Assembly (NCBI GenBank): GCA_965223265.1
Contig: OZ244999.1
Coordinates: forward strand, 6,688,001 to 6,752,000
DNA length: 64,000 nt
Reading direction: 5' to 3'
Origin: Planctomycetota bacterium
GTDB taxonomy: Bacteria > Planctomycetota > UBA8108 > SXIK01
Below the pieces are notes generated by a model, which was given only the letters and a program-made list of their open reading frames with translations, did no database searches and was not told where the DNA came from. Below are positions 8,408 to 43,779 of the stretch, piece after piece (within the stretch, counting starts at the first letter, position 1; each line of letters starts with the position of its first letter). The position numbers and the translations under genes were made by a program.

Positions 8408-8413
8408 ACCGAC

Positions 8414-8749: not shown

Positions 8750-8811
8750 TTCGCCCGATTCCATTTCGCCGGGAGCGCGAAGAGTCCGAGAACAAGAGAT
8801 CGAGGAAACCC

Positions 8812-9938: not shown

Positions 9939-11450
9939 TCAGGAAACAACCGCCTCAATTCTCACCGACAGTTGCGACCACCTGACAACGCGATTTCGTC
10001 CCCCGTTCTTCGCGGCGTAGAGTGCTCGATCGGCGCGATCGATGAGGACTGCGAGATCCCTGAGTTCGTGTTGTCTCTGAGCGACCCCAAAACTCGAAGT
10101 CACGGTGAATCCGAACTCGTTGCAAGACGCCACTCGCCGACGAATCTCCTCAGCCACCTCAGCTGCACCTGACTCGTTGACATCGCGCAGCGCGACGCAA
10201 AACTCCTCTCCTCCATAGCGGCACACCGCGTCACTGTCATTGACAACTTCTTGCACGATGTCAGAGACACGTTGGATCACCTTGTCTCCCATCGCGTGAC
10301 CGTGCGTGTCGTTGATACTCTTGAATCGATCGATGTCTAGCATAATGCATGAAAGAGGAGCACCCGAATTCTGAGCGATCAACAGCTCTGTTTCAAAGAT
10401 CTCAAAGAAAGAACGTCGATTCAGGCACCCAGTTAATGGATCTCGCGTCGCGAGATAGCGAAGCTCCTTGTTCTTGCGGTCCACATCGTCACGCGATCGC
10501 TTGAGCATCAGTACCATCTGCTGCAGTTGATCGTTCTTCTCCTCTATATTTGTCACGTCATCGAAAGTTACCAACGCGCCGCGAACTCTACCGTCCGGTG
10601 ATTGAATCACCGAGCTGTTGATCACCAGCGTTCGTGTTCCGGCGGCTGGCGTCGACAAGAACAGCGGCACACCGACGATGCCGCGCCCTTCTTTGATCGT
10701 GTCTAACCACGGAAAATTGGCTTCTTCACGTGCATCCCGTGCGTTGACCCAAGGGAGCTTCGACAGCCGCTCCCCCATCAACGACGAAGAAGGTCGTCCA
10801 ACTTTTTGCGCAAACGCCAGATTAGCAAGAACGATCTGTCCTTTAGCGTCGATCAGGACGACACCTTCGGCAAGCGCATCCAACGTACGTTTGACGCGCT
10901 TCGGCACGACGCTTGATGGATCCAACTGACGGAGAGTGCGTTTGATGAAGGTGAGGAAGAGAAAAAAACCCATCACACCGACGAAAAGTGCCGTCGCGAT
11001 AAAGTGACTCACGCCGGTCCCGAAAACGCCTCGGCGGAACTTCTCGAAACGAAGTTCCAGTGTTCCCCACCGACTGCCCGCATTAAAAATTGGAACTTTT
11101 GCGTGCGTCGGGGTCGAATACTCCCCCGCCTGTCGCCCCCAGTACTCTGCGTGGTTCTCGGTGTTGATGAGGAGCTCTCCATCGAGGCTTCTCAGGCCCA
11201 CCGATCGGATGTCCGAGTTTCGGCTCGTTACTGCGACGATCGTTTGGCGCACGGCCTCATAGTCGCTACGGCCTGCCGCCATCGAGACTTGAACGGCCAA
11301 CGACTCACAAAACCGCTTGCGTGCGTCCATGGCCGACCGATTCGGATCCGGCATCAACCCGATCCATTCGGCGATCACGAGGACGCTGACAGTCAGCAGC
11401 GCCAAACCTAAACTGATTCCGACCGAGGGTGACAGGCGACTCAGTCTCAT
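9939..11450 (-). CDS. Membrane-bound PAS-GGDEF diguanylate cyclase
   Basis: Two hydrophobic helices flanking a periplasmic region; PAS (LDALAEGVVLID...LANLAF); DPLTGCLNRR, DIDRFKSINDTHGH, RYGGEEF, AKNGGRNR; gggag RBS before ATG 11450. Confidence 0.93.
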   Translation of the reverse strand: MRLSRLSPSVGISLGLALLTVSVLVIAEWIGLMPDPNRSAMDARKRFCESLAVQVSMAAGRSDYEAVRQTIVAVTSRNSDIRSVGLRSLDGELLINTENHAEYWGRQAGEYSTPTHAKVPIFNAGSRWGTLELRFEKFRRGVFGTGVSHFIATALFVGVMGFFLFLTFIKRTLRQLDPSSVVPKRVKRTLDALAEGVVLIDAKGQIVLANLAFAQKVGRPSSSLMGERLSKLPWVNARDAREEANFPWLDTIKEGRGIVGVPLFLSTPAAGTRTLVINSSVIQSPDGRVRGALVTFDDVTNIEEKNDQLQQMVLMLKRSRDDVDRKNKELRYLATRDPLTGCLNRRSFFEIFETELLIAQNSGAPLSCIMLDIDRFKSINDTHGHAMGDKVIQRVSDIVQEVVNDSDAVCRYGGEEFCVALRDVNESGAAEVAEEIRRRVASCNEFGFTVTSSFGVAQRQHELRDLAVLIDRADRALYAAKNGGRNRVVRWSQLSVRIEAVVS

Positions 11451-11544
11451 CCGCACTCCCGACCCGAGGGTCTGACGCGGGAGGACGAGACGGTGGCGAT
11501 CTTCCCGTCAGGCGGTAAGTCGCGATCTCTGGCGGTTTTGCCTC

Positions 11545-14500
11545 TCATCCAAGCAAGTCTCCCAACTGTTCACCTTCCTCTTCTTCTTCTCGGCGTACCT
11601 CCCGTTCGCGCTTCGTCTTTTCATGCGCCGATAACGCGAGGATCGGCATGGGATCGAACCACACCCAGATCGGCACCGTCGACAGGAAGCTCGTCAGCAA
11701 GGACCCGGCCCGAAGCAGCCAAGTGACGAACCCAACGCTCAAGACCAGCGACGTTACTTGGAGCGAGGTTGAAAAGAAGCTTTGACCATCGTCATCGTCC
11801 GACTCGCTCGCGTCGATCTCATTTCCCATAACATCCAAAGCTTCCCAAAACGCGGCGCTCATAGGAGAGAGTCTCTCGACGATACGCACCTCGGTGGCTA
11901 GCTCGTCTTCGAGTTCCACATCTGGCACGTGGACGTCGATGTCGCTCGTGGTGTAGACCACTTCGACGGGATCAATCGGTGCTATCGGGTCGATCGCAGG
12001 GACGATGCGCGGACGAGGATCCGTTGGGCGAGGCTGCCCGGGAGTGGGACTTTGGTTGGGCGCTACAGGCCCTGGGCTGTCCTCACTCGGCGGCTGAGGA
12101 AGATCCGGCGATTCGTTGGGCGAGGGGGCGTCGACGTCGACGTCGCCGCCGGAGCCGTCGCTATCATCGGTTCCGTCGCTGTCGGACCCCGTATCGTCGG
12201 GAGTCTCTGGCGCGGTCGATTCGGGTTCTTCGCCGGGTGGCGGCGGCTCGGGATCGTCAAACGGATCACTATCCGGAGGACCGGCGTCTGGCACGAACGT
12301 CGAGCCACTCAATTGCACCGTGACGACGGCCGCTGTCGAAAGCGTAGGCACGCCCGAGTCTTCTACAAGCACCACCAGGTTGTAGGTCGGTAGGGCGACT
12401 GGGTCGAGAGCGGTGCTGTCGTTGACACTTACCACGCCGCTGTTCGGATCGATCGCGAATGCGTTACCGGTATTGCCGGACACGAAAGAGAACGTTAGGA
12501 CGTCGCCCATGTCAGGGTCACTGGCCGGCACGATTCCGACCACGGTGCCATTGACACTGCTCGCCACATCGAGAGTGACGGTGAAAGATGAAGCAACGGG
12601 CACGTCGTTGACGCTGGTCACGTCGATCGTCATCATGCGTGCGGCGGTGTCCGTATCGGTGCCGCTGTTGAGCGTGCCGCCATCGTCTTGAACTTGGAAC
12701 GTGAACGAGTCGTAGCCTGTGCCGTGGGCATCAGCCACGGGCTTAAACTTCAGGCGTCCCGCGGCGATGTCAGCGGCGCTGATCGCATCGAGCGCCGAGG
12801 CCGCCTCGCCGGCGTCCACCACGCCGTCGAGGTCTGTGTCTACATAGAGCGTGCCTGTTGACGTCGTTGTCGTCGCGATCACATTGAGGAGCGCGTTGGC
12901 CGGGCTGTCGCTGGGGTCGGTGAAGCCGAAGTCGCCTGTAGTGAACACATAGTCTGTGTCCTCTAGCGTCGTCACCGTGTTCGCTGTGCCCACCGGTGCA
13001 TCGTTGACGCTGGTAACGTCGATCGTCATCGTCCGAGGCGTCGGATCGGTGTCGACGCCGCTGTTCAGCGTGCCGCCGTCGTCTTGCACTTGGAACGTGA
13101 ACGACTCGTAGCCCGCGCCGTGGGCATCCGCCACCGGCCGGAACTTCAGGCGTCCCGCGGCGATGTCGCCGGCGCTGATGGCGTCGAGCGCCACCACAGC
13201 CTCTCCAGCGTCTACGACACCATCGAGGTCGGCATCGACGTAGAGCGAGCCAGTCGACGTTGTCGTCGTGGCGATCACATTGAGGAGCGCGTTCGCCGGG
13301 CTGTCGCTGGGGTCGGTGAAGCCGAAATCACCAGCCGTGAACACGTAGTCTGTGTCCTCTAGCGTCGTCACCGTGTTCGCTGTGCCCACCGGTGCGTCGT
13401 TGACGCTGGTGGCGTCGATCGTCATCACGCGCGCCGTGGTGTCCGTATCCACGCCGCTGTTCAGCGTGCCGCCATCGTCCTGAACCTGGAATGTGAACGA
13501 GTCGTAGCCCGTACCGTGAGCGTTCGGCGCTGGCTGGAACTTCAGCTGGCCAGCGGCGATGTCGGCGGCGCTGATCGCGTCGAGTGCCGAGACTGCTTCC
13601 CCAGCGTCGACCACGCCGTCGAGGTCAGCGTCGACGTAAAGCGTGCCGACCGATGGCGTCGTCGTGGCGACTATATTGAGGAGCGCGTTGGCTGGACTGT
13701 CGTTCGGATCGGTGAAGCCGAAATCGCCCGCGGTGAACACGTAGTCCGTGTCTTCAAGTGTCGTCACCGTGTTCGCCGTGCCTACGGGCGCGTCGTTAAC
13801 ACTCGTCACATCGATCGTCATGCTCCGCGGCGTCGGATCGGTGTCGACGCCGCTGTTCAGCGTGCCGCCGTCATCCTGAACCTGGAACGTGAACGAGTCG
13901 TAGCCCGCGCCATGGGCATCCGCCACAGGCCGGAACTTCAGACGACCCGCGGCGATGTCGGCGGCGCTGATCGCGTCGAGCGCAGCGACTGCCTCGCCGG
14001 CATCGACGACGCCGTCGAGGTCCGCGTCAACATACAGCGTGCCCGTTGACGTCGTCGTCGTGGCGATCACGTTCAGAAGTGCGTTCGCCGGGCTGTCGTT
14101 CGGGTCCGTGAAGCCGAAATCGCCCGCGGTGAACACGTAGTCCGTGTCTTCAAGTATCGTCACCGTGTTCGCCGTGCCGACGGGCGCGTCGTTGACACTC
14201 GTCACATCGATGGTCATCACCCGCGCGGTGGTGTCTGTATCAGCGCCGCTGTTGAGCGTGCCGCCATCGTCTTGAACTTGGAACGTGAACGAGTCGTAGC
14301 CTGTGCCGTGGGCATCCGCCACAGGCTGGAACTTCAGGCGGCCAGCCGCGATGTCGGCGGCGCTGATCGCGTCGAGTGCGGCGACGGCTTCCCCAGCGTC
14401 GACGACGCCATCGAGGTCGGCGTCCACATAGAGCGTACCTGTTGACGACGTCGTCGTGGCGATTACATTGAGGAGCGCGTTGGCTGGACTGTCGTTCGGA

Positions 14501-17500
14501 TCGGTGAAACCGAAATCGCCCGCGGTGAACACGTAGTCCGTGTCTTCAAGTGTCGTCACCGTGTTCGCCGTGCCTACGGGCGCGTCGTTAACACTCGTCA
14601 CATCGATCGTCATGCTCCGCGGCGTCGGATCGGTGTCGACGCCGCTGTTCAGCGTGCCGCCGTCATCCTGAACCTGGAACGTGAACGAGTCGTAGCCCGC
14701 GCCATGGGCATCCGCCACAGGCCGGAACTTCAGACGACCCGCGGCGATGTCGGCGGCGCTGATCGCGTCGAGCGCAGCGACTGCCTCGCCGGCATCGACG
14801 ACGCCGTCGAGGTCCGCGTCAACATACAGCGTGCCCGTTGACGTCGTCGTCGTGGCGATCACGTTCAGAAGTGCGTTCGCCGGGCTGTCGTTCGGGTCCG
14901 TGAAGCCGAAATCGCCCGCGGTGAACACGTAGTCCGTGTCTTCAAGTATCGTCACCGTGTTCGCCGTGCCGACGGGCGCGTCGTTGACACTCGTCACATC
15001 GATGGTCATCACCCGCGCGGTGGTGTCTGTATCAGCGCCGCTGTTGAGCGTGCCGCCATCGTCTTGAACTAGGAACGTGAACGAGTCGTAGCCTGTGCCG
15101 TGGGCATCCGCCACAGGCTGGAACTTCAGGCGGCCAGCCGCGATGTCGGCGGCGCTGATCGCGTCGAGTGCGGCGACGGCTTCCCCAGCGTCGACGACGC
15201 CATCGAGGTCGGCGTCCACATAGAGCGTACCTGTTGACGACGTCGTCGTGGCGATTACATTGAGGAGCGCGTTGGCTGGACTGTCGTTCGGATCGGTGAA
15301 ACCGAAATCGCCCGCGGTGAACACGTAGTCCGTGTCTTCAAGTGTCGTCACCGTGTTCGCCGTGCCGACGGGCGCGTCGTTGACGCTCGTCACATCGATG
15401 GTCATGGTCCGAGGCGTCGGATCGGTGTCGACGCCGCTGTTCAAAGTGCCGCCGTCGTCCTGAACCTGGAACGTGAACGAGTCGTAGCCCGTGCCCGTAG
15501 CGCCTGGCACCGGCTGGAACTTCAGGCGGCCAGCTGCGATGTCGGCGGCGCTGATCGCGTCGAGCGCCGCGACGGCTTCCCCAACGTCGACGACGCCATC
15601 GAGGTCCGTGTCGACATAGAGCGTGCCCGTTGACGTCGTTGTCGTCGCGATCACATTGAGGAGCGCGTTGGCGGGGCTGTCGCTGGGGTCGGTGAAGCCG
15701 AAGTCGCCTGTAGTGAACACATAGTCTGTGTCCTCTAGCGTCGTCACCGTGTTCGCCGTGCCGACGGGCGCGTCGTTGACACTCGTCACGTCGATGGTCA
15801 TCACCCGCGCGGTGGTGTCAGTATCAGCACCGCTGTTGAGCGTGCCGCCATCGTCTTGCACTTGGAACGTAAAGGAGTCGTAACCCGCGCCATGGGCATC
15901 CGCCACCGGCTGGAACTTCAGGCGACCTGCGGCGATGTCGGCCGCGCTGATCGCGTCGAGTGCCGCGACGGCTTCCCCAGCGTCGACCACACCGTCGAGG
16001 TCGGCATCGACATACAGCATGCCGACCGACGTCGTTGTCGTCGCGATCACATTGAGGAGCGCGTTGGCGGGGCTGTCGCTGGGGTCGGTGAAGCCGAAAT
16101 CACCAGCCGTGAACACGTAGTCTGTGTCCTCTAGCGTCGTCACCGTGTTCGCCGTGCCCACCGGTGCGTCGTTGACGCTGGTGACGTCGAGCGTCATCGT
16201 CCGAGGCGTCGGATCGGTGTCGACGCCGCTGTTCAGCGTGCCGCCGTCGTCCTGAACCTGGAACGTGAACGAGTCGTAGCCCGTGCCCGTCGCACCTGGT
16301 ACCGGCTGGAACTTCAGGCGACCGGCGGCGATGTCCGCCGCACTGATCGCATCGAGCGACGCGACTGCTTCGCCGACGTCGACTACGCCATCGAGATCCA
16401 CGTCGACATATAGCGTGCCGACCGATGTCGTCGTCGTGGCGATCACGTTCAAGAGTGCGTTGGCTGGACTATCGTTCGGATCGGTGAAACCGAAATCGCC
16501 CGCGGTGAACACGTAGTCCGTGTCCTCAAGTGTCGTCACGGTGTTCGCTGTGCCCACCGGTGCATCGTTGACGCTGGTGACATCGATCGTCATGGTCCGC
16601 GGCGTCGGATCGGTATCAACGCCGCCATTCAAAGTGCCGCCGTCGTCCTGAACCTGGAACGTGAACGAGTCGTAGCCCGTGCCCGTCGCACCTGGCACCG
16701 GCTGGAACTTTAGGCGGCGAGCGGCGATGTCGGCGGCGCTGATCGCGTCGAGCGCCGAGACTGCTTCGCCGGCGTCGACCACGCCGTCGAGGTCAGCGTC
16801 AACATACAGTGTGCCCGTTGACGTCGTCGTCGTGGCGATCACATTGAGGAGCGAGTTGGCCGGGCTGTCGTTCGGGTCCGTGAACCCGAAATCGCCCGCG
16901 GTGAACACGTAGTCCGTGTCTTCAAGTGTCGTCACCGTGTTCGCCGTGCCGACGGGCGCGTCGTTGACACTCGTCACATCGATGGTCATCACCCGCGCGG
17001 TGGTGTCTGTATCAGCGCCGCTGTTGAGCGTGCCGCCATCGTCTTGAACTTGGAACGTGAACGAGTCGTAGCCTGTGCCGTGGGCATCCGCCACAGGCTG
17101 GAACTTCAGGCGGCCAGCCGCGATGTCGGCGGCGCTGATCGCATCGAGCGACGCGACTACTTCGCCGACGTCGACTACGCCATCGAGATCCACGTCGACA
17201 TATAGCGTGCCTGTTGACGTCGTTGTCGTCGCGATCACATTGAGGAGCGCGTTGGCCGGGCTGTCGTTCGGGTCGGTGAAGCCGAAGTCGCCTGTAGTGA
17301 ACACATAGTCTGTGTCCTCTAGCGTCGTCACCGTGTTCGCTGTGCCCACCGGTGCATCGTTGACGCTGGTGACGTCGATCGTCATCGTCCGAGGCGTCGG
17401 ATCGGTGTCGACGCCGCTGTTCAAAGTGCCGCCGTCGTCCTGAACCTGGAATGTGAACGAGTCGTAGGTCGTGCTGTGAGCGTTCGCTGCCGGCTGGAAC

Positions 17501-20500
17501 TTCAGGCGTCCCGCGGCGATGTCGCCGGCGCTGATGGCGTCGAGCGCCACCACAGCCTCTCCAGCGTCTACGACACCGTCGAGGTCGGCATCGACATACA
17601 GCGTGCCGACCGACGTCGTCGTCGTGGCGATCACGTTCAAGAGTGCGTTCGCCGGGCTGTCGTTCGGGTCCGTGAACCCGAAATCGCCCGCGATGAACAC
17701 GTAGTCCGTGTCTTCTAGCGTCGTCACCGTGTTCGCCGTGCCGACCGGTGCGTCATTGACGCTCGTCACGTCGATGGTCATCACCCGCGCGGTGGTGTCT
17801 GTATCAGCGCCGCTGTTGAGCGTACCGCCATCGTCCTGGACCTGAAACGTGAACGAGTCGTAACCCACGCCCGTAGCGCCTGGCACCGGCCGGAACTTCA
17901 GACGACCCGCGGCGATGTCGGCCACACTGATCGAGTCCAAGGCCGTCACTGCTTCACCGCCGTCCACGACACCGTCGAGGTCGGCATCGACATACAGCGT
18001 GCCGACCGACGTCGTCGTCGTGGCGATCACGTTCAAGAGTGCGTTCGCCGGGCTGTCGTTCGGGTCCGTGAACCCGAAATCGCCCGCGATGAACACGTAG
18101 TCCGTGTCTTCAAGTGTCGTCACCGTGTTCGCCGTGCCTACGGGCGCGTCATTGACGCTCGTCACATCGATGGTCATCGTCCGCGGCGTCGGATCGGTGT
18201 CGACGCCGCCATTCAAAGTGCCGCCGTCGTCCTGGACCTGGAACGTGAACGAGTCGTAGCCCGCTCCATGGGCATCCACCGCGGGCTGGAACTTCAGACG
18301 ACCGGCAGCGATGTCGGCGACGCTGATCGCGTCAAGCGCAGCGACAGCTTCACCTGCGTCGACCACGCCGTCGAGGTCAGCGTCGACGTAGAGCGTTCCC
18401 GTCGAGGTAGTCGTGCTTGCGATCACGTTCAGTAGCGCGTTCGCCGGACTGTCGTTCGGATCACTGAAGCCAAAGTCACCCGCCCCAAAAACGTAGTCCG
18501 CGCCCTCGAGAGTTGTGACCGTATTCGCTGTGCCCGCGGGCGCATCGTTCACCGCGGTGATGTCCACGTTGACGCTGCCGAGGATCACTGTTCCGCCACC
18601 GCCGCTTCCGGTGTGCCCGCCGTCACTGATTTCTATTTGGATAGCGTCGGCGTTGTCGCCGGCGGTGTGGATCGTCCCATGCTGGTATAGAATCCGTACG
18701 GGCGAATCGATGAACGAATTGAGGTCGGCGACCGACCCGATCAGCGACAAAATCCCGGTACCACTTCCGAACACGGTGACGTCGACATCGGAAGACGACA
18801 CAAGATTCCCACCAGTACTCGTACGCAACGTCAAAGTGACCAACTGATTGCCAGAGTCGACGTCACTGAGATCGATGGCAGACAGGTCGATGAAGCTAGC
18901 AACGTCCTCGATCACGGTCAAATCGGTTGGTAGTGATCCAACGTTGGTGGGGTCGTCGTTAACGGCTGTCACGTCAATCGTCATCGTCCGTGGCGTCGGA
19001 TCAGTGTCGACGCCGCTGTTCAGCGTGCCGCCATCATCCTGAACCTGGAAAGTAAACGTCGTGTACGGCGTCCCACTTGCATCCGCCACGGGCTGGAACT
19101 TCAGGTTCCCTGCCGCGATGTCAGCACTGCCAATCGAATCGAGCGCTGCGACAGCCTCGCCAGCGTCGACGGTGCCATCAGCGTCGGCGTCGACATAGAG
19201 CGTGCCAGCTGACGGTGCTGTTGCCACCACCACGTTCAGAAGCGTGTTCGAAGGGCTGTCGTTCGGGTCCGTGAAGCCAAAATCTCCGGCGACGAAGACG
19301 TAGTCGGTGTCTTCGTTTGTGGTCACGGTATTGTTCGAACCAACAGGTGCATCATTGACGCTCGTCACATCGATTGCCATCGTCCGCGCGGTGGTGTCCG
19401 TGTCGACGCCACCGTTGAGCGCACCACCATCATCCTGCACTTGGAACGTGAACGAGTCGTAGCCCGTGCCGTGGGCATCCGCCACCGGCTGGAACTTCAG
19501 GCGGCCAGCGGCGATGTCGGTCGCACTGATCGCATCGAGCGCAACGACTGCTTCGCCGACGTCGACTACGCCATCGAGATCTGCGTCTACATAGAGCGTG
19601 CCAGCCGTCGTCGTCGTCGCGGCAATCACGTTGAGCAGCGCGTTCGCTGGGCTGTCGTTCGGATCAGTGAAACCGAAGTCGCCCGCAGCGAACACATAGT
19701 CCGTGTCCTCCAGCGTCGTCACCGTGTTCGCTGTGCCGACGGGTGCGTCGTTGACGCTGGTGACGTCGATGGTCATCGTCCGCGGCGTCGGATCGGTGTC
19801 CATGCCGCTGTTGAGCGTGCCGCCGTCATCCTGCACTTGGAACGTAAACGAGTCGTAGCCCGTGCCATGGGCATCAGCCACCGGCTGGAACTTCAGGCGG
19901 CCAGCTGCGATGTCGGCCGCACTGATCGAGTTCAGGGCAACCACCGCTTCACCCGCGTCCACCACGCCGTCAAGATCCGCGTCAACATAGAGCGTGCCCG
20001 TTGACGTCGTCGTCGTGGCGATCACATTGAGAAGTGCGTTCGACGGGCTGTCGTTCGGGTCAGTGAAACCGAAATCGCCCGCCGTGAACACGTAGTCTGT
20101 GTCTTCCAGTGTCGTCACGGTGTTCGCGGTGCCCACCGGCGCGTCGTTAACGCTCGTCACGTCGATCGTCATGGTCCGCGGCGTCGGATCGGTGTCCACG
20201 CCGCCGTTGAGCGTACCACCATCATCCTGCACCTGGAACGTGAAGGAGTCGTAGCCCGTGCCGTGGGCATCAGCCACCGGCTGAAATTTGAGACGACCAG
20301 CAGCAATGTCCACGGCACTGATGGAGTCCGAAGCCGCCACCGTTTCACCCGCATCCACAACACCGTCGAGATCCGCGTCGACGTAAAGCGTTCCCACCGA
20401 CATCGTTGTCGTTGCGATCACGTTGAGGAGCGCGTCCGCCGGGCTGTCGTTCGGGTCACTGAAGCCAAAGTCGCCGGTCGTGAACACGTAGTCCGTGTCC

Positions 20501-23500
20501 TCCAGTGTCGCCACCGTGTTCGCCGTGCCTACCGGAGCATCGTTGACTGAAGCTACCGTTAGATTCACCGTGGTACGAGTCTGATTCGACGTTAGGTCAG
20601 CGACCTGCGTGCTGCCAAGCTCCGTGCTGAAGATCTGGAGTGAATCGAGAAAGCCGCCGAAACGTCGGTCCGGGTCGAAATCCTGGCGCACACCGACATA
20701 AGCGTTGCCCGCCGGGTCCACACCGTCTGAGCCTCGAGAGTCGCTGGAAGCGAACGTGCCGTCAACGTACACACGCGCTCCGGTCGCACCAACGGTCAGT
20801 GTGTAAGTGTGCCACTGGCCGTCGCCAACGAGCGCGTTGATATCGACCTCGAGAGCAAAATTGTCCAGAGTATCGTTACCATCCCGGACCACCGTCCGCA
20901 GCATTCCCGGAGATGTCGCGTGTGCGTCCTCGACGATGAAGACGTTAAGACTATTGAAATCGTTGATATCGCCATGGCTGTAGAGGTACTGAAATAGGCC
21001 ACCGTTGATTTCGTCGACTTTGAACTCGAGCGAGAGCGTGAACTCACTGTTGTACGAGATGTCCGGAAGTTCTACGTATTCGCCGCTGACTTCATCGAAG
21101 CCGAGCGCACTCCCGAAGTCACCCGCGACGGTGCTCGTGCCATTGAGCGTGCCGTCCGCACCGCCGATCGCATCCACCGCGTTGCCGTCGAATCCCCAGT
21201 AGTTCTGCACCCCAGCACCCGCGTCCGCGACGACGTAATCGAAGCTATCTGCACCCAAGAAACCCGGGTCTGGAGTGTAGGTCAACGTTCCATCGCCGTT
21301 ATCGATCACCGAACCGTTCGCCGGCTGTGTGAAGTCAACGACCGAGATCGCATCTCCATCTGCGTCCGTGTCATTGGTCGTTGGATCGAAGACGAGCGGA
21401 GTGTCCTCGTCAGTGTTGAGAGAGTCTGCCACCGCGACGGCGAGGCTGTTGGACACTGGAAGTGCGGCGATCACGTTTAACGAGAATTCAGATGTCGATC
21501 CGTACGCCAATCCGTCGTCGACACCAACCTGACCTGCATCCGTGATCTCCGTCGCGGTGGCTGAGATTCGGTCGGCAGCAGGGACTCCGACTCCGAATAG
21601 CGTCGTGTCAATCGTCGCATCGCCGGATCCATCCGTCGTGACACTCACAGTGCCAAGGTAGACACTCCCCTCTCCGTGGCCGCTGGCGTCCTCGGTGCCC
21701 AAGGGGCTGTTGAAAAAGTCGATGCGGTACTCTGCAGCGACCTTGGTGCTGAGCGTCCCAACGACGTGAAGATCACTCCCCAGCACTTCGGCAAGCGTCA
21801 ACACCGGAAAGTTCTGCAGGTCGTTGCCACCCAAGTCTGCGTCGCCCCCGTCGTTCGCGGTGACGAAATCACCAGTCATCGTTGCATTTGCGCTCAGATC
21901 GATTCCCAGGTCGCCGTTGCCAAAAATCTGGTTTCGCAGGAACGTGTGTCCAGACGCTCCTGTGAGGACGACGATTCCATCACCCGAGTTCCCAGAAACC
22001 TCATTGTCACGAACTACCGAATCGATTCCGGCGCGGATTCCGATCCCGGCGGTCTGATCTGCATCACCAAAGCCGTTGCCCTTGATGACGTTGTTTTCGA
22101 CGATGATGTTCGAGAGCGCACCAGACGCGAAATCGATACCGAAGCCGCTGTTACCGATGACTTCGTTTCCAGAGATCAAGAGGCCAATAGCGCCGTTGAG
22201 GAGCGTGACACCGTCACCTATCGTCGCGACAGCTCCATTGTCTCTCAAAACGCTGTTGCTGACTTGTCCACCACTGGTGCTGTCGAAGACGATTCCCACT
22301 TCCCCGCTTCGGGTGACCGTCACTCCGTCGATGAGCGCGTTGTCACCCGTGACGACAATTCCGTGGCCCGTCGGTGCCGCCGTGGCAACGCCATTGATGC
22401 CGATGGAGTAGATCGACACGTCATCTGCTACGACGTCGAAGCCAGGCCCTGCAACAGTCTCCGTATAGTCGACCACAACTTCGGGGCCCGTCGTGACTTC
22501 CACGACCGCTGGATTGTTATCGCCTGAGAACGACTCCTGGGTTCGGCCGTCAATGACAACTGCGTCGGTGATCGCCGGCAGAGCGGAACTGACCGTGATC
22601 GTGTGCAGCGCGGCTCCAGGGATGTTGAAGTGGATCTCGTCAGGTGTAGCTCCGTTAGCCGTGTTGTTCGCCGCTATGATCGCCTCACGCAGTGAGATCA
22701 AACCATCCCCCTTCGTCGCCGCAAGATTCGCAATGCTGGAGGTATCACCGTTGACCAGATCGTCTGTGGTGTCTACGATCACGATGGATCCTGTCATCGC
22801 CACGAGACTGACAGCAAACTCCGACGTCGATGACGTCGTGAGATCCGTCGCTGTCGCACTGACGAATTCTCCTGCGGCTACCGTCGCGCTGAGCGAGAGG
22901 CCAAAACTTCCGCTGCCGGCGCCATCCGTCGTGACGGTGAGAGACCCGAGGTAGCGCTCTCCTTCGCCGCTGCCACTGCCGTCAACTGATGCGTTGGCGA
23001 ACAATTCAATCCGAAAGGCCCTGGAAGCGGTACTTTCAAGCGTTCCCGAGATTGACAACGTTCCTACGCCATCGGTGAAAGCGGTCGCGATCACCGGAAC
23101 ATTCTGCAGTCCATTCGCTCCGACGTCCCCGTCGCCGGCGTCGTTCGCAGTCACTCCGAACCCGTCTTCGCTACCGCCGACCAGATCGACTCCAAGGCCA
23201 ACGTTCGAGTGGATGGCATTCCCAAGGATGCTCACTCCAGAGGCCGCGCCGCGAACCTCGATCCCGTTCTCGCCGTTGAAGGCGATCACGTTCCCTTCAC
23301 CGGCAGCGGTGCTGCCGATGGCTACCCCGGTCCCCTCAACGCGAATACCGTCGCTGCCATTCGCCACTGGCGACGTCCCGGTGGCGTCGGTGCCGATCAA
23401 GTTGCCGAAGATGTCGCTGCTCGTGCTCCCGACCACGACATCGATTCCCCATCGGGTGTTGCCGGAGATGACGTTCCCCAAAGCCCCAGCTCCGCCGATC

Positions 23501-26500
23501 GTGTTCGACGACGAACTGCCCGTCAGCCGGATCCCCAGGTCGTTGGCCACGGCTCCTGTTCCGCTAGCATTCGTTCCGATGTAGTTGCCGTACACGACGT
23601 TGTTGGCCGTGGCCATGGCCAGTCCTGTTTGCACGTTGCCGGAGATCACATTGCCTTCGCCCGGTGCGCTGCCACCAATGGTGTTGCCGTCAGCGCCCGT
23701 GGAGAGAAACACACCCTCGCCCTGGTTCGAAACAGCAGACGATCCGGTGACGTCGGTACCGATGAGATTGCCGAGAAGCGTGTTCCCCGTCGTGCCTGCG
23801 TCCGAGAGATTGACGCCCTGGTTCAGGTTGCCTGAGATCAAATTACTCTCGCCGACCCCGGAGCCTCCAATCGCGTTGTTCGCAGACCCGCTGCGCAGAT
23901 TGATTCCGTCTTGACCGTTGCCTAAAGCACTTGTGCCAGCTGCGTCCGTACCAATGCGATTGCCGAGAATGGAGTTGTTCGAGGCCCCGCTCAGACTAAT
24001 GCCATTCTGTGTGTTCCCTGAAATCACGTTGTCGCGGAGCGTGTTGCCGTCGGTGAACAGGGCAACACCGTTCGCGCCATTGCCCACGGACGCCGAGCCT
24101 GCTGCGCTGACGCCGATGTAGTTCCCCAAAACGGTGTTGCTCGTCGCGGACGCGCCTGTGATCTGCACACCATCATCGTCGTTTCCTGAGATGACATTGC
24201 GGTCCGTCGCTAGAACACCGCCAATGATATTGTTTGCCCCATCGCTCACTCTGACGCCGTCCGTCGCGTTGCCAAGATCGACAGCTCCGGTGACGTCGGT
24301 GCCGATGTAGTTGCCCACGATCGAGTTGCCATCGGAACTTGTGATCTCAATCCCGTCGTCGCCGAATCGATTGATCACGAGCCCACGGACCGTGCTGCCG
24401 TCGCTCCCTGCCGTGAGTCGCAGGCCGTCGACCGCGCCGGCCGAAGCTCCATCCAGCTCAATGACAGGTGAACCGGAGAAGTCTGGTTCAGTCGTCCCGT
24501 CGATCACAACCGCGTCTGTTATGTCTGGGAGCGCCGAGGCAAGCGTGATGGTGTGAGGTCCGACACCAGAGATATCGAAGTGAATTTCATCCGGCCCACC
24601 TGTATTGGCTGTGTTGTTCGCAGCGATGATCGCCTCACGCAGCGAGATGAGCCCGTCGGCTCCACGGTTTGCCGCAAGTGCCGCGATCGAAGACAGGTCG
24701 GGCGCGTTGACGACGTCGCTGGCGGTATCCACGACAACGATGCTCACTGCTTGGACGCTCATCGAAAACTCAGATGTGTCGCTCGTACCTGAGTCCGTCG
24801 CTGTCGCGGAAACGAATTCTCCTGCTGCGACCGCGGCACTCACGGTCGCCTCAAAGCTGGCGTTGCCACTTACATCCGTTACAACGTTCGCAAAGCCGAG
24901 GTAGACCTCGCCCTCGCCATGGCCTGAAGCGTCTACAGCGGCGGTCGAGAAGAATTCGACGCGAACCGCCGTCGACGCGGTCGTGTTGAGCGTACCGCGG
25001 ACAAGTACCGTGGTGCCGGTTGTACCAACACCCGTAAGCACTGGAAAATTCTGTAGATTGTTGGCACCGCTATCCCCATCACCCGTGTCATTCGGCGTCA
25101 CGATCCCGTCGCCCGACAAGTCTATGCCGAGCTGACCGTTCGCGTAGATCGAGTTCCCCGAGATCTCGTTCCCCGCGCCAGCCGTTGGGGCCAATCTAAC
25201 GCCTACGCCGTTGTTGTTCGCAATGATGTTGCCCGCGCCAGGGGCAGTACCGCCAAGCGTATTGCTGGCCGCATTGTCGCCGACGAACACTCCGTCCTGG
25301 AGGTTGCCAAACGCGACCGTCCCAGTGCTGTCCGTGCCGATGAAGTTACCCTGCACAACGTTTCCGGTGGTACCGGAATTCGTCAGAATCAACCCTTCGA
25401 ACGTGTTCCCCGAAAGAACGTTACTCGCCCCGGGAGTCGTACCACCGATCGTGTTTCCTGTCGCGCCGCCGTTGATCGTGATGGCGCGGGTATTCGGCAG
25501 CACACCCGACTCTCCCGCGTTGAGACCAACGATGTTGCCTTCGACAACGTTGCCGCTGGAGGTGTTAAAAATCCAGAGCGCGGCGCCGGAGTTCCCGGAG
25601 ATCACGTTGCCCTCTCCCGGCGCGGCGCCGCCGATCTGGTTGTTGTCACTCAGCGACATTTGAATTCCACCGATGTTGGCGATCGCCACACTACCAGTGG
25701 CGTCGGTGCCGATGTAGTTCCCCTGAATCGTGTTGCCGTCGGAGGACGTCAGACTCACGCCCGCCGATCCGTTTCCAGAGATCACATTGCGCGCCTCTGG
25801 CGAGTCACCGCCGATCAAGTTCCCGGCGGAGGAATTCGTGATCTCGATCCCTTGCGATCCGTTACCGAGAATGACGGCGCCGCTGAGGTCAAGGCCGATC
25901 GTGTTGCCCTGGACGACGTTGTTGCTCGTCTGGCTCATGTGAACGCCTCGGGACGTGTTCCCCGAAATGACGTTTCCGGCGCCGGGCGCAGTGCCGCCGA
26001 TCGTGTTGCTAGCAGCATTGCCGTTGATGGAAACACCGTTGCCGCTGTTTCCGATGGCGCTTGAACCTCCGACGTCCGTACCAATCAAATTGCCGAGGAC
26101 GCTGTTACCGTCGGAGCCGGCGCCGGTGATCTGCACCCCACCCCCATCGTTTCCGGAGATGACGTTGCCCGCGCCCACTCCTGTGCCACCGATCGTGTTT
26201 CCTGTCGACCCCGACGCGACGTTGATGCCGTTGAGGTTGTTTCCGAGGTCCTGGGTCCCCGTCACATCAACCCCGATGAAGTTTCCGATGATGTTGTTAC
26301 CCGTGACACCAATCAGTCGGACGCCGTATTGGTCGTTTCCCGAAATGACGTTTCGGTCAACGGACGAAACACCGCCGATGACGTTGTTGTTGGAGCTGAG
26401 GGAGATCAGAATTCCATCTAAGGTATTCCCCAGATCGATCGTCCCTGTCACATCCGTGCCGACGTAGCTTCCGGCGATCGTGTTGCCGTCTCCCGTGCCA

Positions 26501-29500
26501 AGTTGAACACCGTCAGACGAGAATTGGTTGATGACGAGCCCACGCACGGTGCTGCCGCCGCCCAGTACTCGGAGGCCCTCCATGCCGCCACCGACGAGGA
26601 GGCTGCCGTCAATTTCGATGACCGGCTTGCCGTTGAATCCCGTTTGAGTGGCTGCGTCGAGAACGACGGGGTCGTTGAGAGATGGTAGCTCTGTGGTGGT
26701 CACTTGGATGCGCCACCAACTGTAGCCGACCCCACCTGGATAGTCAGGGTCGAAGTCGACGATACTAGCATCGTCGAGCGTCGTCGCTGCCACTGTCGTC
26801 AGCGAATTCGCGATCCCGTCGTCTTGATAGTAGAGATGGTTAGGATCTGACAGGGGAATGTCGAACTGAATCTCGTCGGGCGAGATGCCGTTCGCGGAAG
26901 CATTCGCAGCGATGATGGCCTCCCGTAGCGACACCAATCCATCAGGCCCCTTGTTGCCCATGAGCGCGGCGATCGACGAGAGGTCGGGAGCGTCGGCAAC
27001 ATCGCTGGTGGTGTCGACGACCACCGCAGTTACCGCCTGAACGTTGGCGGCGAACTCCGAAGTATCGCTCGTCGTCAAGTTGGTCGCAGTGGCCGAGATG
27101 AAGTCTCCGGCCGCCACGCTAGCGGTCAACGACACACTGAAGCTCGCGTTTCCGGTCGCGTCCGTCGTCACGTTCGCGAATCCAAGGTAGGTTTCGCCTT
27201 CGCCGTGGCCACTGCCGTCGGTCACAGCGTTCGAAAAGAACTCCACTCGTAGCGTCGTGGACGCGCTTGTGTCGAGGCTGCCATGGATCCGAATCGTCGT
27301 GCCGGTCGTGCCTGCGTTCGTCAGCACTGGGTGATTCTGAAGATTGTTTGCCCCCGCGTCACCGTCGCCAACGTCGTTGGCGTCGACGGTGCCATTCGCG
27401 TCGAGATCAATCCCGAGACTACTATTGGCGAAGAATGAATTGCCGAGAATCTGATTCCCCGTCCCCGACAAGATCTGCACGGCGTTCAGGTTGTTCGCAA
27501 TGACGTTGCCATCGTTTGCTCCGGTGCCGCCGATCGTATTGTTGGAGGCGCTCATCCGGATGCCGTGGCCGTTACCGAAATCTCCGCTACCGTTGATGTC
27601 GACTCCGATGTAGTTGCCACGAATGACATTTCCTGAAGACGCCGTGATCTCCATGCCAGCGAAGCTGTTAGAGGAAATCACGTTCCGCTCACCCACTGTC
27701 GCACCGCCGACGATCGAATTGCTCGAAGTGATCAGGACGATGCCGGAAAAGCCGTTGCCGAGCGCTGACAAGCCATCCGCCGACAGCCCAACGAGATTGC
27801 CCTGAATGACGGTGCCATCTGCAGAGCCAGAGACCATGAGTCCATTGCTCGAGTTCCCCGAGATCAAGTTCTCGATGACTTGCGTACCGGCCGCGCCGGA
27901 GATTGTGACCCCGGTTGAGTTCGAGATCGCTGCGGATCCTAAGGAGTCCGTACCGACGTAGTTGCCTCGGATGATGTTGTCGTCAGATCCAACGGTGGTG
28001 ACGGCGATCCCCGTTGAGCCATTGCCGGACACGACGTTCCGTTGGTCGGAAGTCGTACCACCGATCGTATTGTTGTTCGCACCGTTGGAGATAGCGACTC
28101 CGTCCGCATTGCCAAGAGCCGCGGTTCCTGTCACGTCGAGGCCGACCAGGTTTCCACGCACAGTGTTGAAATCAGCGTTGGTGATCTCGATTCCTGTTGA
28201 GTCATTGCCAGAGATCAAGTTGCCCGCTCCAGCGACTCCGGTACCGACGCTGTTCCCCGAGGCGCTGTTGGCAATCCGCACGCCGACAAAGAGGTTGCCT
28301 CGATCGAGAAGACCAGTCACATCCGTGCCGATGAGATTGTTGACGATTGAATTGCCGCTCGTCCCCACACCTTCGAACTGGACGCCGTGGACGTCGTTAC
28401 CCGAAATGACGTTCCCCGCAGCGCCCAAACTTCCGATGACATTGCTTGAAGCACCTAGGGAGAGGTGGACTCCGTCGCCGCCGTTGCCGCGCACGATGTC
28501 GCCGTCCGCAGCCAACCCAATGAAGTTGGCCTGGATGACGTTCGAGCTTGTGCCGATGCCTGATATCTCTATGCCGTCGCCATCATTGGCGGAGATCACA
28601 TTGCGTTCGCTGACGCTGCCGCCGATCTGGTTGCTCTGTGCGCCGGCTTCGATCCTCACTCCGTCCAGCGAATTGCCGCGCTCGCCCGCGCCGTCGGCTG
28701 CCAGGCCGATGTAGTTCCCCTGGAGCAGATTGCTGTCAGCACCCGCGCCGGTGATCAGAATGCCGTTGCCGCCGTTCGCCGAGATGATGTTGCGCTCGGC
28801 GATGTCTGCCCCACCGACGCGCCCGCCGCTACTGCCAGCGGATATTTGGATCCCGTCACCGCCGTTGGGAAGCGCAGAAGAACCGTTGAGGTCAAGGCCG
28901 ATGACGTTGTCCGTGACCACGGTATTCGTGCCGAAGATGGCAATCCCATCGTCAGTGTTGGCTGAGATGACATTCCCGTCGACGAGTGTGCCGTCTGCCG
29001 TGGCCGAAATCGTGACACCAACGTCGTTGCCGAAAGTCCCAGTGCCAGCGCCGTCAACACCGATGTGGTTAGCCTCGATGCGAACGTTGTCGGCGTTGAC
29101 GACGATGCCACTCTCTCCAATGTCGGCGAAACCGCCAATCGCGAACCCCTTGACGCGGACACCGTCTGCGTCGATGACGAGACCATCATCGCTGACACCG
29201 CCAGCCGTGCCGTCGAGGACGATGACCGGTAGGCCAGCGTAATCCGGCTCGGTCGTGGCATCGATGAAAAGGGTATCTGAGATGGCCGGCAACGCAGAGC
29301 CGACCTGAATCGTGTGCGCACCCCCCACAAGTGGATCGCTGATGTTGAACTGAATGACGTCTGGTCCAGCCGTGCCGTTCGTGGCAGTGATCGCCTCACG
29401 CAGCGAGATCCTGCCGTCACCGCCAACATCTCCCAGCAGATTCGCCACAGTTGACGGATCCGGCGCGTCGATCGTGTCGCTCGTCGTGTCGACGACCAAC

Positions 29501-32500
29501 ACCGCACCGGAGGCAGCCGCCAAACTGAGTGAAAACTCTGAAGTGTCGTTTGTCGTCAGGTCAGTCGCGGTCGCAGAGATCACCGCCCCTGGAGCGACTA
29601 CGGCAGAAAAAGTGGAACCAAAGGTCGCGTCACCCAGGACGTCCGTAGTGACGTTGACGGATCCGACAAAGACCTCTCCTTCTCCGTAGCCGGAGCCGTC
29701 ACCTACGGTACTAGCGTAGAACTCGACGCGGAAGGTGCGTGAAGCCGTGCTGTCAAGCGACCCACTGAGATAGATCGTGTCCAGCCCGTTTGTGATTGCA
29801 GCGTCTACAACCGGAAAATTCTGCAGCGCGTTCGGACCGGTGTCAACGTCGCCGGCATCGTTGACCGTCGGACCGGTCGCCCCAAGATCTATCCCAAGCG
29901 CTCCGTTGGAGTGAATGGAGTTGCCAAGAACGGCGTTCCCCGCCCCCGCGGAGTCAACGAAGACTCCTCGTGCAGAATTATTGGCGATCGTATTGGCCGT
30001 GCCAACTGCCGTTCCGCCAACAGTATTGTTCGCGGCTCCGTTGACGATGCGGACTCCGTTGTTGGCATTGCCAATCGCAATGGCGCCCGTGATATCGGTG
30101 CCGATGAAGTTCCCCTCGGCAACGTTGCCGTCGGTTCCCGCGTCGCCGAATTGCAAGCCATCGTCGAGATTGCCAGAAAGGACGTTCGCCGCTCCTGCCG
30201 ACGCGCCGCCGACCGTGTTGTTGGCGGCTCCCAGCTTGATCTGGACTCCGTCGTCTCCATTCCCTAGAGCCACTGCGCCCGCCGCGTCGGTGCCAACGAA
30301 ATTGCCTTGGATGACGTTGTTGTCCGTACCGACTCCAGTGACAACGATGCCATCGCTAAGGTTCCCAGAGACGAGGTTGCCCGCTCCAGAGACTGTTCCA
30401 CCGATCGTGTTCGATGCGGCAGCGTTGGAGATCACGATACCGGCGAGCGAGTTTCCAATCGCCAGGCTACCAGTGACGTCGGTACCGATGTAGTTGCCCA
30501 AAAGGACGTTGCCCGATGTGCCAGCGTCTTGAAACTCGACTCCGTCGTTGTCGTTTCCAGAGATGATGTTCCGCGCCCCGGCAGTCGTGCCGCCGACGGT
30601 GTTGCCGGTGGCGCCGCCGCGGATCTCGACCCCCTTGCCGGTGTTGCCGAGATCGACGCTTCCGGTGACGTCGACACCGATGAAGTTTCCAAGCACGGTG
30701 TTGCCTGTCGCAGCGACGCCGATGATCTGGACGCCACGTCCGGTGTTTGCCGAAACAACGTTGCGATCGGCTGGGTTCATGCCGCCGATCGTGTTGAGAG
30801 ACGATTCCACCAGGATGCCATGGCCGCCGTTTCCGATGGCGATGGTGCCAGACACATCCGTACCGATGTACGAACCGACCACGGAATTCGCACTTCCCGA
30901 GCTGATCGCAATGCCTTCGTCCCCAAATCCGTTGATCACCAGTCCGCGCAGAGAGGAGGCGGACGTGGAGAACTTCACACCGTCAGCGGTCGGCCCTGCC
31001 AGCGCGCCATTCAGTTCGATCTTGAGAATGGCGTCGGAGACCCCAGGCGCCGCAATTGTGTTTTCCTGCGCCCCGGACTGCGTGTAGCCGTCAATGACTA
31101 CTGGATCCGTCAGCGTCGGCAAATCCGTCGTCGGCTGGATCGTGAACCAACTGAAAGGAGTGCCGACGTAGTCAGGGTCAAAATCGACAATCGACCCGTC
31201 GTCGAGAGTCGTTGTCGAGATCAACGTCAGCGAGTTGGCGATGCCATCGTCCTGATAGTAGAAGTGATTGGCGTCTCCCAGAGGAATGGCGAAGTGGATT
31301 TCGTCAGGTCGACCCGAGTTCGCCGTATTGTTGACCGCGGTGATCGCCTCACGCAGCGATATGTGGCCGTCGGCACCACTGTCTGAGAGAAGAGCAGTGA
31401 TCGACGAAAGATCCGGCGCATCCGCAACGTCGCTCGTGGTCGTCACGACGACGGCGGCGCCTGCCTGGACGTTCGCCGCGAACTCCGACGTCGCACCGTA
31501 GTCTCCGCCGCCCAAGTCGACCGTCGCGGTGGCGCTAATGTAGTCGCCGGCGGCCACCGCAGCGCTCAAAGCTGTAGAGAAAGTAGCGTCGCCATTGGCA
31601 TCAGTCGTTACGCTGGTGAAACCAAGATACGTCTCACCCTCGCCGCTGCTCGATCCGTCCGAGGTCGTGTTCGAGAAAAACTCGATGCGCAGTGTCGTGC
31701 TCGCCGCGCCGTTGAAACTGCCGCGGACGACGATTTCGCTTCCCGTGGTGCCTGCGCTCGTGATGACAGGCGAGTTTTGCAGGCCGTTCGCACCGACGTC
31801 GGCGTCGCCGACATCATTCGCGGTGACGTCGAACGCGTCTTCCGTTCCACCGATGATGTCGATCCCTAAATCGCCGTTGGAGTAGATCGAGTTACCGAGA
31901 AACGTGTTGTCGACACTGCCAGCAACCGAGACGACAATCCCGTCGTTGGCGTTAAATGCTATGGTATTGCCTGCACCCGCCGCGGTGCCGCCGATCGTCT
32001 GACCGGACGACGAGCTCATAAGCACGCCGTGTTGCCCATTCCCGAGATCGAGCGTCCCCGTTTTGTCGGTGCCAATGAAGTTGCCGACAACTTGATTCCC
32101 GCTGCCGGATCCGAAGAGAGTCACGCCGTTGACGTTGTCCCCGATGACGTTGGCGTCGCTGAAACTCGTCGAACCGACCACATTGCTCGCTCCGCCGCTG
32201 ACGAATACACCATTACTTGTGTTACCAAGCGCAAGAGTGCCGCTTACGTCGACTCCAAGATGGCTTGCGACGATGGTGTTGGAGTCTGAGAGAATGAGGA
32301 CACCGTTACCGGACGCGCGGTTGATCGTCAGCGCACGAAGTGTACTCCCCGAGCTGGCGGCCTGCAGCTCAAGACCATCACCGGGTCCGGCAGACGAGCC
32401 ATCGATCTCGACGATCGGAGCGTCGACATACCCAGGCTGCGAAGACCCGTCGATTACGACCGTGTCGGTGATCGCGGGCAGCGGTGAGGTCGGAGCGATG

Positions 32501-41574: not shown

Positions 41575-41585
41575 GGATCGACGCG

Positions 41586-43769: not shown

Positions 43770-43779
43770 GGAACCCCTG

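Follow-up and report, generated by a model that had tools for sequence, protein, structure and literature searches.

A conserved C-terminal membrane domain of giant LEPR-XLL surface proteins, usually encoded beside a membrane sensor gene

The giant gene and its product

We analysed a window of 64,000 nucleotides from a Planctomycetota bacterium (GTDB lineage Bacteria; Planctomycetota; UBA8108; SXIK01), taken from assembly GCA_965223265.1, contig OZ244999.1, positions 6,688,001 to 6,752,000 of the forward strand. The window means this whole stretch, and positions are counted from its first letter. Giant surface proteins are common in bacteria, yet little is known of their export, retention and sensing. 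The window carries a gene for such a protein, a single open frame of 8707 codons on the minus strand. The last ~110 residues of its product are a conserved C-terminal membrane module that occurs on very large surface proteins and has no Pfam or NCBIfam model. The gene and its main parts are listed here, with the evidence in brackets.

11545..37668, minus strand, giant gene, product of 8707 residues (open reading frame (ORF), Pfam, NCBIfam, repeat count)
37588..37650, minus strand, LEPR-XLL motif, protein residues 7–27 (NCBIfam NF012209, LEPR-8K)
12640–20547, minus strand, cadherin-like repeats, about 20 near-identical copies of 132 residues each (repeat count)
11956..12306, minus strand, Pro/Asp-rich linker, residues 8455–8571, a candidate envelope-spanning spacer (composition count)
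11548..11898, minus strand, conserved C-terminal domain, the last 117 residues, the unit that has relatives (homology searches and alignment A1)

From its N-terminus the protein runs through the LEPR-XLL motif, DUF7948 with beta-propeller repeats, blocks of right-handed beta-helix, and the cadherin-like/tandem-95 repeats. The repeats are followed by one Pfam Cadherin domain, the linker and the C-terminal domain. The LEPR-XLL motif is preceded by a short basic stretch, and it scores 25.6 bits against NF012209, where the cutoff is 17 (24.1 bits when the N-terminal half is scanned alone). The tandem-95 model NF012211 gives 264.3 bits against a cutoff of 90, and Pfam Cadherin_4 matches in 18 stretches. 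Within the repeats, a 7-residue marker recurs in 18 exact copies at a spacing of 132 residues. The G+C fraction is 0.63–0.64 across 12–18 kb and about 0.59 elsewhere in the window. Near-identical repeats are prone to collapse or expansion during assembly, so the true length of the gene may differ. By eye, the protein has no evident Sec signal peptide, and HemolysinCabind, the mark of RTX repeats, is absent from the Pfam matches to either half.

The C-terminal domain

An initial annotation, made from the letters alone, had described a Pro/Asp-rich linker, then a hydrophobic stretch, then a charged tail, and this layout holds. The linker has 31 Pro and 20 Asp in 117 residues. Approximately 60 residues past it begins a hydrophobic stretch of about 49 residues, in which 19-residue Kyte–Doolittle means reach 1.62, among the highest in the protein, and in the tail they fall to −3.0. 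The span first given for the motif, 11545–11790, takes in the stop codon and the 81 residues before it; the conserved unit extends further, over approximately 11548–11898.

A word-indexed search found two Marinobacter proteins, whose C-termini align in BLASTP over 83–113 residues at 36–39% identity (E 5e-22 and 4e-17). The same kind of search with the C-terminal region among proteins of 4788–15238 residues returned nothing, which reflects the limit of its sensitivity and not absence, because an exhaustive search found thousands of relatives. In that search (phmmer, the last 117 residues against 1.84 billion cluster representatives), there were 2900 matches at E≤1e-3 and 159 at E≤1e-10. The core motif ends 24–64 residues (median 45) from the C-terminus in 142 of the 151 sequences retrieved. 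These numbers support a specific, conserved C-terminal membrane signal over a generic hydrophobic tail.

We aligned the window fragment with 38 short matches to give an alignment of 39 members (A1). Residues are numbered within the 117-residue piece; adding 8590 gives the protein numbering. In A1, Trp78 and Asp82 are invariant, and Gly56, Trp60, Arg63, Gly65, Leu67, Pro76 and Pro83 occur in at least 90% of the members. Column statistics were taken from 272 non-redundant C-termini. These include 121 genomic members that had been selected by a pattern of conserved residues; conservation is therefore best read from A1, which is free of that bias.

The back-translated motif pattern matched once in the window, against none expected from shuffled sequence. 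Across one genome per species, it gave at least 121 matching stretches, 80 of them with flanks. The flanks extend up to 10 kb on each side, short of the 5′ neighbourhood of the largest genes, and ORFs were called mechanically at these loci. All counts over genomic loci given below are among the matches listed. The motif lies 14–80 codons before a stop codon in every one of the 121 stretches. The taxa represented include Burkholderiales, many Gammaproteobacteria, Planctomycetota, Nitrospira, Desulfobacterales, Gemmatimonadota and others; Cellvibrio fontiphilus, Ramlibacter alkalitolerans and Denitromonas halophila are among the species.

Curated models do not describe this region. None of the NCBIfam C-terminal sorting models (PEP-CTERM, GlyGly-CTERM, MYXO-CTERM and others) matched the last 101 or 351 residues at E≤10, and at E≤1 all 39 A1 members were likewise without a match. 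No Pfam or NCBIfam family was common to the 39 members at E≤1. Pfam reports only the Cadherin domain, which lies upstream of the C-terminal domain. LPxTG is absent from the last 120 residues as read from the sequence. With the absence of HemolysinCabind, this agrees with the first impression that the C-terminus is unlike LPxTG, PEP-CTERM and RTX signals. The 30 nearest clusters in the ESM Atlas are all unnamed, the A1 profile found nothing below E 0.18 among solved structures, and a tblastn search of plasmids gave no match. In the literature searched, there was no description of the domain, of its link to LEPR-XLL or of the sensor described below; unsearched journals and preprint supplements may hold more.

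Anatomy, fold and orientation

The domain consists of four parts.

11803..11865, minus strand, conserved amphipathic helix, family pattern L..LD.M...L, predicted periplasmic (A1, column statistics, AlphaFold2 helix 12–32)
11713..11778, minus strand, membrane helix of 22 residues, rich in small residues, with near-invariant Gly56 and Trp60 (hydropathy, A1, AlphaFold2, column statistics)
11638..11712, minus strand, signature segment with near-invariant Arg63, Gly65 and Leu67, a short hydrophobic piece, Pro76-x-Trp78 and Asp82-Pro83-x-Pro85 (A1, 272 C-termini)
11548..11637, minus strand, charged tail with a basic cluster, an acidic cluster and a terminal L-x-x-L-(F/L), predicted cytoplasmic (retrieved sequences, column statistics)

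In the 272 C-termini, an acidic stretch follows the amphipathic helix. Conserved Gly, Ser, Thr and Pro lie within the membrane helix and after it; helix-destabilising residues of this kind are found in the substrates of site-2 proteases. The best-conserved positions (53, 56, 60, 63, 67, 70 and 74) recur with a period of 3–4 residues, which places them on the same face of a single helix. After the Trp78 region, the family reads F-D-P-(L/M)-P-(V/I)-L. AlphaFold2 run on A1 gave a mean pLDDT of 80.9 and a pTM of 0.37. The model has one helix at residues 41–74 (pLDDT ~96), a non-helical P-x-W…D-P-x-P region and then a tail helix.

A membrane hairpin had been suggested for the hydrophobic stretch. 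The second hydrophobic piece has only 15 residues, ends at Pro76-x-Trp78 and is flanked by Arg63 and by Lys or Arg at position 79 (69% of sequences). The short piece, its charged brackets and the single predicted helix give no support to a hairpin in the family. The window protein has Val79, so its own tail seems more hydrophobic than that of the family. A hairpin of two membrane helices was rejected for the family on the column statistics and the one continuous helix from AlphaFold2.

The charge around the helix is asymmetric. The 23 residues before it average 2.2 Lys/Arg and 5.6 Asp/Glu, the first 20 residues of the tail average 5.5 Lys/Arg, and columns 98–104 of the 272 C-termini hold 36–68% Lys/Arg. 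We infer from this bias that the helix is oriented with its N-terminus out and its C-terminus in. A second indication comes from carriers with a two-partner secretion (TPS) domain, described below. TPS-family proteins pass the inner membrane N-terminus first through Sec, so a C-terminal helix on such a protein must stop transfer and end N-out/C-in. By analogy, the same orientation would apply to the LEPR-XLL carriers. The signature segment would then lie at the inner face of the membrane.

Proteins that carry the domain

Among 20 representative matches of at least 900 residues, a LEPR-like motif lies 16–43 residues from the start in nine; most of the other long representatives begin within repeats and look truncated. 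At the genomic loci listed, 39 carrier ORFs have an upstream stop, and 23 of these show a relaxed LEPR pattern within their first 150 residues; among other ORFs of 300 residues or more, 10 of 525 do. In the 16 carrier ORFs that lack the pattern, the frame opens within a repeat domain or at an assembly gap. Of the 93 proteins long enough to test, 91 are richer in proline over the 140 residues preceding the domain than they are further upstream.

A profile search of proteins of 288–2000 residues gave 29 matches. Nineteen are of the cadherin/VCBS type, and the other ten form a second class with TPS and/or MBG_2 domains, which one source calls filamentous hemagglutinin family proteins. Second-class proteins with complete N-termini begin with a Sec-type signal peptide, and five of the six scanned have an N-terminal Pfam TPS domain. 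The module is therefore common to the cargo of two unrelated export routes.

Some details of the carriers were noted in passing. The second class (proteins P0173–P0182), with its signal peptide, TPS and MBG_2 domains, reads D-P-L-M/V in the domain in place of D-P-L-P. Among the matches listed, carrier genes occur in tandem at L067 and L074/L075, sensors flank the carrier on both sides at L009, and a second giant ORF of ~3200 residues lies directly downstream of the carrier at L027 and L058.

The neighbouring sensor gene

Directly downstream of the giant gene lies a gene for a membrane sensor.

9939..11456, minus strand, sensor gene, product of 505 residues, 88 nucleotides downstream of the giant gene on the same strand (Pfam, NCBIfam, synteny, fold)

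The sensor is made of a transmembrane helix, a periplasmic PAS/PDC-like domain of about 115 residues, a second transmembrane helix, a PAS domain and a GGDEF domain. The GGDEF domain covers the full Pfam model (positions 1–161 of 161). There is no terminator-like site in the 88-nucleotide gap. The first ~310 residues of the sensor are the part that is conserved beside the C-terminal domain in other genomes among the matches listed.

Using an iterated profile of the first 186 residues, we searched the loci with at least 600 nucleotides of downstream DNA (n=78). A same-strand sensor ORF directly follows the carrier stop codon in 58 of these, and four more have an over-extended ORF start, giving 62 of 78 among the matches listed. 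The commonest spacing is a 4-nucleotide overlap (gap −4 nucleotides; 19 loci). The sensor gene, not the protease, is the tightest conserved neighbour of the domain.

Pfam was run on 55 of the 66 matches to the sensor profile, with 11 truncated or duplicate ones omitted. Among the 55, there are 28 hybrid histidine kinases, three HATPase-only proteins, 11 GGDEF-EAL, six GGDEF-HD and seven GGDEF proteins. The input part is constant and the output is interchangeable. No Pfam family matched the first ~185 residues at E≤1e-5 in any of the 55 ORFs.

The predicted fold of the input module (pLDDT 88.7, pTM 0.72) has two membrane helices around a mixed alpha/beta domain. Foldseek returned nothing at E≤1e-3. 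Its weak top matches were periplasmic PAS/PDC-type domains (WalK, the LapD orthologue CdgS9 and CpxA), a hint at fold class only. The match of the periplasmic model to the CdgS9 output domain (4u64) was likewise weak, with E 0.013 and a target-normalised TM-score of 0.48. A complex prediction with the sensor input alignment (A3) and the C-terminal domain (A1) scored 0.22–0.23 against a mark of 0.32, which is evidence neither way.

An (L/F)-D-P motif lies a few residues past the last membrane helix in both the carrier (A1) and the sensor (A3), on the presumed cytoplasmic side. It takes the form F-D-P-L-P-V-L in the carrier and L-D-P-S-x-x-V-P in the sensor. The common motif may mark a shared partner or a contact between carrier and sensor.

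The divergent export cluster

On the other side of the giant gene, a cluster of five genes is transcribed divergently.

39592..41574, plus strand, GAF-HlyD adaptor, first gene of the divergent export cluster (Pfam, NCBIfam)
41538..43769, plus strand, M50-type intramembrane metalloprotease fused to an HlyD adaptor (Pfam, NCBIfam, motif check)
43639..45501, plus strand, SecA_DEAD-only protein with degenerate Walker A and DEAD motifs (Pfam, NCBIfam, alignment to SecA)
45527..46414, plus strand, short HlyD-family periplasmic adaptor (Pfam, NCBIfam)
46387..48159, plus strand, TolC/OEP outer-membrane channel (Pfam, NCBIfam)
38265–38822, minus strand, ORF of 185 codons within the 1.9-kb divergent region (37669–39591) (ORF call)

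The five genes at 39592–48159 make up the secondary SecA_DEAD/type-I-secretion-like locus that Kamneva, Poudel and Ward described as conserved in 2015 (PMC4452313). The Pfam M50 match is weak (E 0.002), and a weak match is likewise stated in that paper. Of the NCBIfam models, daptide_HExxH matches the M50 domain with E 1.6e-48 and the YydH/LiaK peptidase model with E 6.7e-11, both below their cutoffs. The catalytic motifs are intact, with HEFGH at residue 239 and N-x-x-P…DG at residue 333, and HExxH is kept in all nine locus homologues that cover the site. From these motifs, the M50 protein is probably an active enzyme with a substrate in the system. Daptide and YydH/LiaK peptidases strip N-terminal leaders from peptide natural products, and site-2 proteases cut helices with their N-terminus in. 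For both reasons, the LEPR-XLL motif is at least an equal candidate for the M50 substrate to the C-terminal helix.

The SecA_DEAD-only protein has lost both the Walker A sequence GEGKT and the DEAD box, as judged by alignment to SecA (1nkt). Both motifs are kept in three of three full-length homologues among the matches listed (L001, L054 and L077), and the window copy may be a non-catalytic variant.

Seventeen loci were testable for a neighbouring export cluster: in each, a LEPR-like N-terminus is present with 1 kb or more of DNA upstream of it. Export genes lie nearby in 12 of them: HlyD, M50-HlyD or SecA-like genes are directly upstream or divergent in 11, and downstream of the sensor in one (L023). 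The remaining five (L009, L010, L061, L064 and L067) have no adjacent export gene. The Nitrospira loci listed lack a SecA-like gene. The initial annotation had tied the C-terminus to the M50-HlyD cluster. The tie is supported: export genes accompany 12 of the 17 loci, and the M50 catalytic motifs are intact in the window and in the nine homologues that cover the site. It is not exclusive: TPS carriers share the domain, and the sensor is the tighter neighbour (62 of 78 among the matches listed).

No ABC transporter was found in 25 ORF scans around the giant gene, a set that leaves the ORFs at 50988–63639 outside. No site-1 protease was seen among the ORFs scanned around the gene, and no sortase-, exosortase- or rhombosortase-like gene in the scanned neighbourhoods. 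Neither Pfam nor NCBIfam recognised the 185-codon ORF at 38265–38822, and tblastn found no counterpart of it in the 121 loci listed.

Proposed role of the domain and alternatives

We propose that the giant protein is a fibre exported N-terminus first and held by a stop-transfer helix in the inner membrane (N-out, C-in), whose conserved surface would dock a dedicated partner, most plausibly the sensor. This proposal seems to us about evenly balanced between right and wrong. The protein would leave the cell through the divergently encoded M50-HlyD/HlyD/TolC conduit, with the Pro/Asp linker threading the envelope. The C-terminal helix would act as a stop-transfer anchor in the cytoplasmic membrane, and the charged tail would stay in the cytoplasm. 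The docking surface would be made up of the conserved stripe along the helix and, at the inner face, the P-x-W/D-P-x-P segment. The co-transcribed sensor, which in this window is a diguanylate cyclase, would be the likeliest partner; failing that, the partner would belong to the export module. In this way, a cyclic di-GMP (c-di-GMP) or phosphorelay output could be coupled to the state of the fibre, with regulated proteolytic release as a possible addition.

Several points weigh against this proposal. Classical type I systems export the C-terminus first, the reverse of the direction proposed here for the M50-HlyD/TolC conduit. The orientation of the helix is taken from the charge bias and the analogy with TPS proteins only. 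Among the matches listed, 16 of 78 loci have unrelated genes or another giant ORF downstream in place of the sensor, so the sensor is not obligatory in cis. The match between domain subtype and sensor output does not show contact, because adjacent genes share ancestry. The curated LEPR-XLL model is passed by only four of the 20 long representatives, many of which are N-terminally truncated. The genomic locus set is itself biased, since the pattern demands the conserved residues, excludes the TPS class and draws mostly on metagenome-assembled genomes.

A bolder version, unlikely in our estimate, would make the helix and the sensor input one envelope-spanning signalling device. The fibre would pass ligand binding or mechanical load through the face of the helix to a cyclase, phosphodiesterase or kinase, much as an integrin does. 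The M50 protease would remove the LEPR-XLL leader, and the tether would have been recruited both by the type I secretion-like module and by two-partner secretion.

The anchor-and-partner proposal has to be set against other explanations. One is that the M50 protease, as a site-2-type enzyme, cuts the C-terminal membrane segment and so releases or matures the giant protein. The M50-HlyD fusion in the divergent cluster has intact HEFGH and N-x-x-P…DG motifs, and the retention of HExxH in nine of nine homologues points to selection for catalysis. At 12 of the 17 testable loci, the carriers have M50-HlyD or HlyD genes next to them. The helix is rich in Gly, Ser and Thr with invariant Pro residues after it, and conservation is concentrated close to the inner face, the side on which site-2 proteases cut. 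However, the known substrates (RseA, RsiW, FtsL and signal peptides) are N-in helices, whereas this helix appears to be N-out. The nearest named relatives of the enzyme, of the daptide and YydH/LiaK types, remove N-terminal leaders, a role that LEPR-XLL fits. TPS-type proteins, exported by a different route, carry the domain too, its closest conserved neighbour is the sensor and not the M50 gene, and no site-1 protease was seen among the scanned ORFs. On balance, we consider cleavage of the C-terminal segment by the M50 protease rather improbable.

It is distinctly unlikely that the domain is a C-terminal type I secretion signal, recognised in the cytoplasm, exported first and not retained in the inner membrane. 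In its favour, such signals lie at the C-terminus and stay uncleaved, the nearby genes include HlyD adaptors and a TolC channel, and the giant protein has no Sec signal peptide evident by eye. Yet type I signals show little conservation and do not take the form of a 22-residue hydrophobic helix followed by basic clusters. Pfam found RTX repeats in neither half of the protein, no ABC transporter came up in the 25 ORF scans nearby, and the TPS-type carriers are exported N-terminus first.

The domain also resembles LPXTG, PEP-CTERM and GlyGly-CTERM signals in that it combines, at the C-terminus, a signature common to the family with a membrane helix and a cluster of basic residues. It might be a sorting signal that an as yet unidentified sortase- or exosortase-like enzyme removes while joining the protein to the envelope. 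The signature comes after the helix and not before it, the tail, at 24–64 residues, is long and ends in a motif of its own, none of the NCBIfam models for sorting domains matches, and the scanned neighbourhoods hold no sortase-, exosortase- or rhombosortase-like gene. We hold this explanation to be very unlikely. Finally, an ordinary hydrophobic tail, alike by chance or composition and with nothing in its favour beyond low-complexity flanks, is refuted by residues invariant across several phyla and by the fixed C-terminal position, and we give it next to no credence.

Comparison with known systems

The window has the same gene set as the locus of Kamneva et al. (GAF-HlyD, Peptidase_M50-HlyD, SecA_DEAD-only, HlyD and OEP/TolC), and the taxa overlap (Planctomycetes, Proteobacteria and Nitrospirae; PMC4452313); Methylobacterium extorquens AM1 is among the bacteria named there. 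In the sections of that paper examined, no cargo, C-terminal domain or linked sensor is given, 'substrate' appears once in a general sense, and 'Walker' does not appear. Here, a cargo class (LEPR-XLL giants with the C-terminal domain) and a sensor gene adjoin the module.

The system resembles LapA/LapD/LapG in that a giant repetitive adhesin would pass through an HlyD-TolC type conduit and be held by one terminus, and in that an inner-membrane c-di-GMP protein of the transmembrane–periplasmic–transmembrane kind is encoded nearby. LapA has an N-terminal plug in the outer-membrane channel and a C-terminal RTX signal; it is secreted by an ABC exporter, and LapG, a periplasmic protease, releases it. 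Here, in contrast, the conserved end is a C-terminal inner-membrane helix, and the sensor in the window has a full GGDEF domain. Pfam and NCBIfam found no LapG-type protease or N-terminal retention module on the neighbouring ORFs or the N-terminal half of the giant protein, and the locus does not belong to the LapA type. By analogy, it may be seen as somewhat of a mirror image of LapA/LapD/LapG.

LPXTG/sortase, PEP-CTERM/exosortase and GlyGly-CTERM/rhombosortase share with the domain a C-terminal position, a signature, a helix, a basic cluster and large surface carriers. Unlike in these tripartite signals, the signature here follows the helix, the long tail has its own motif, and there is no curated match and no cognate enzyme gene nearby. 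With the substrates of site-2 proteases, the domain shares a helix that has destabilising residues and is encoded beside an M50 gene with intact catalytic motifs. It differs in the inferred orientation, which is opposite, in the lack of an evident site-1 step, and in the alternative LEPR-XLL substrate on the same protein.

Some carriers, with a signal peptide and a TPS domain, are like the TpsA exoproteins FhaB and CdiA. In FhaB and CdiA, the N-terminal part is displayed and the C-terminal part is kept inside the cell. We know of no described TpsA protein with a conserved C-terminal inner-membrane helix.

In the accessible part of their description, the giant proteins of Omnitrophota are extracellular, with C-terminal transmembrane and intracellular regions, and are associated with SecA_DEAD (bioRxiv 10.1101/2023.11.21.568195). 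Compared by that description only, they differ in that SecA-like domains are fused to the giant protein. A candidate match by name, the 'MtxA-like C-terminal domain' of Chlorochromatium giants, was set aside: from what is accessible of the source, it appears to be a long beta-helix region and not this domain (bioRxiv 10.64898/2026.03.19.712371).

Significance

In the literature searched, no cargo has been named for the secondary SecA_DEAD/M50/HlyD locus since 2015. The domain is a sequence marker for a cargo class across several phyla, and with a profile of it, thousands of proteins whose present label is hypothetical or VCBS would be better annotated. The topology that it suggests can be tested: a fibre would span both membranes and end in the cytoplasm. 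It also points to a conserved neighbouring sensor with c-di-GMP synthesis, c-di-GMP breakdown or phosphorelay output. A tether joined to a sensor, if true, would be a new way of coupling surface attachment to intracellular signalling; cleavage by the protease, if true, would be a regulated intramembrane release of an adhesin.

Other genes in the window

The region beyond the sensor gene holds one further listed feature.

756–2024, minus strand, insertion sequence (IS)-type DDE transposase gene

The window at 756–9924 also contains a corrinoid-dependent methyltransferase set: a phosphonate-type binding protein, a B12-binding protein, a RACo-type reductive activator, a homocysteine S-methyltransferase-family protein and a URO-D-family protein. 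The transposase and the methyltransferase set seem unrelated to the C-terminal domain and its neighbours.

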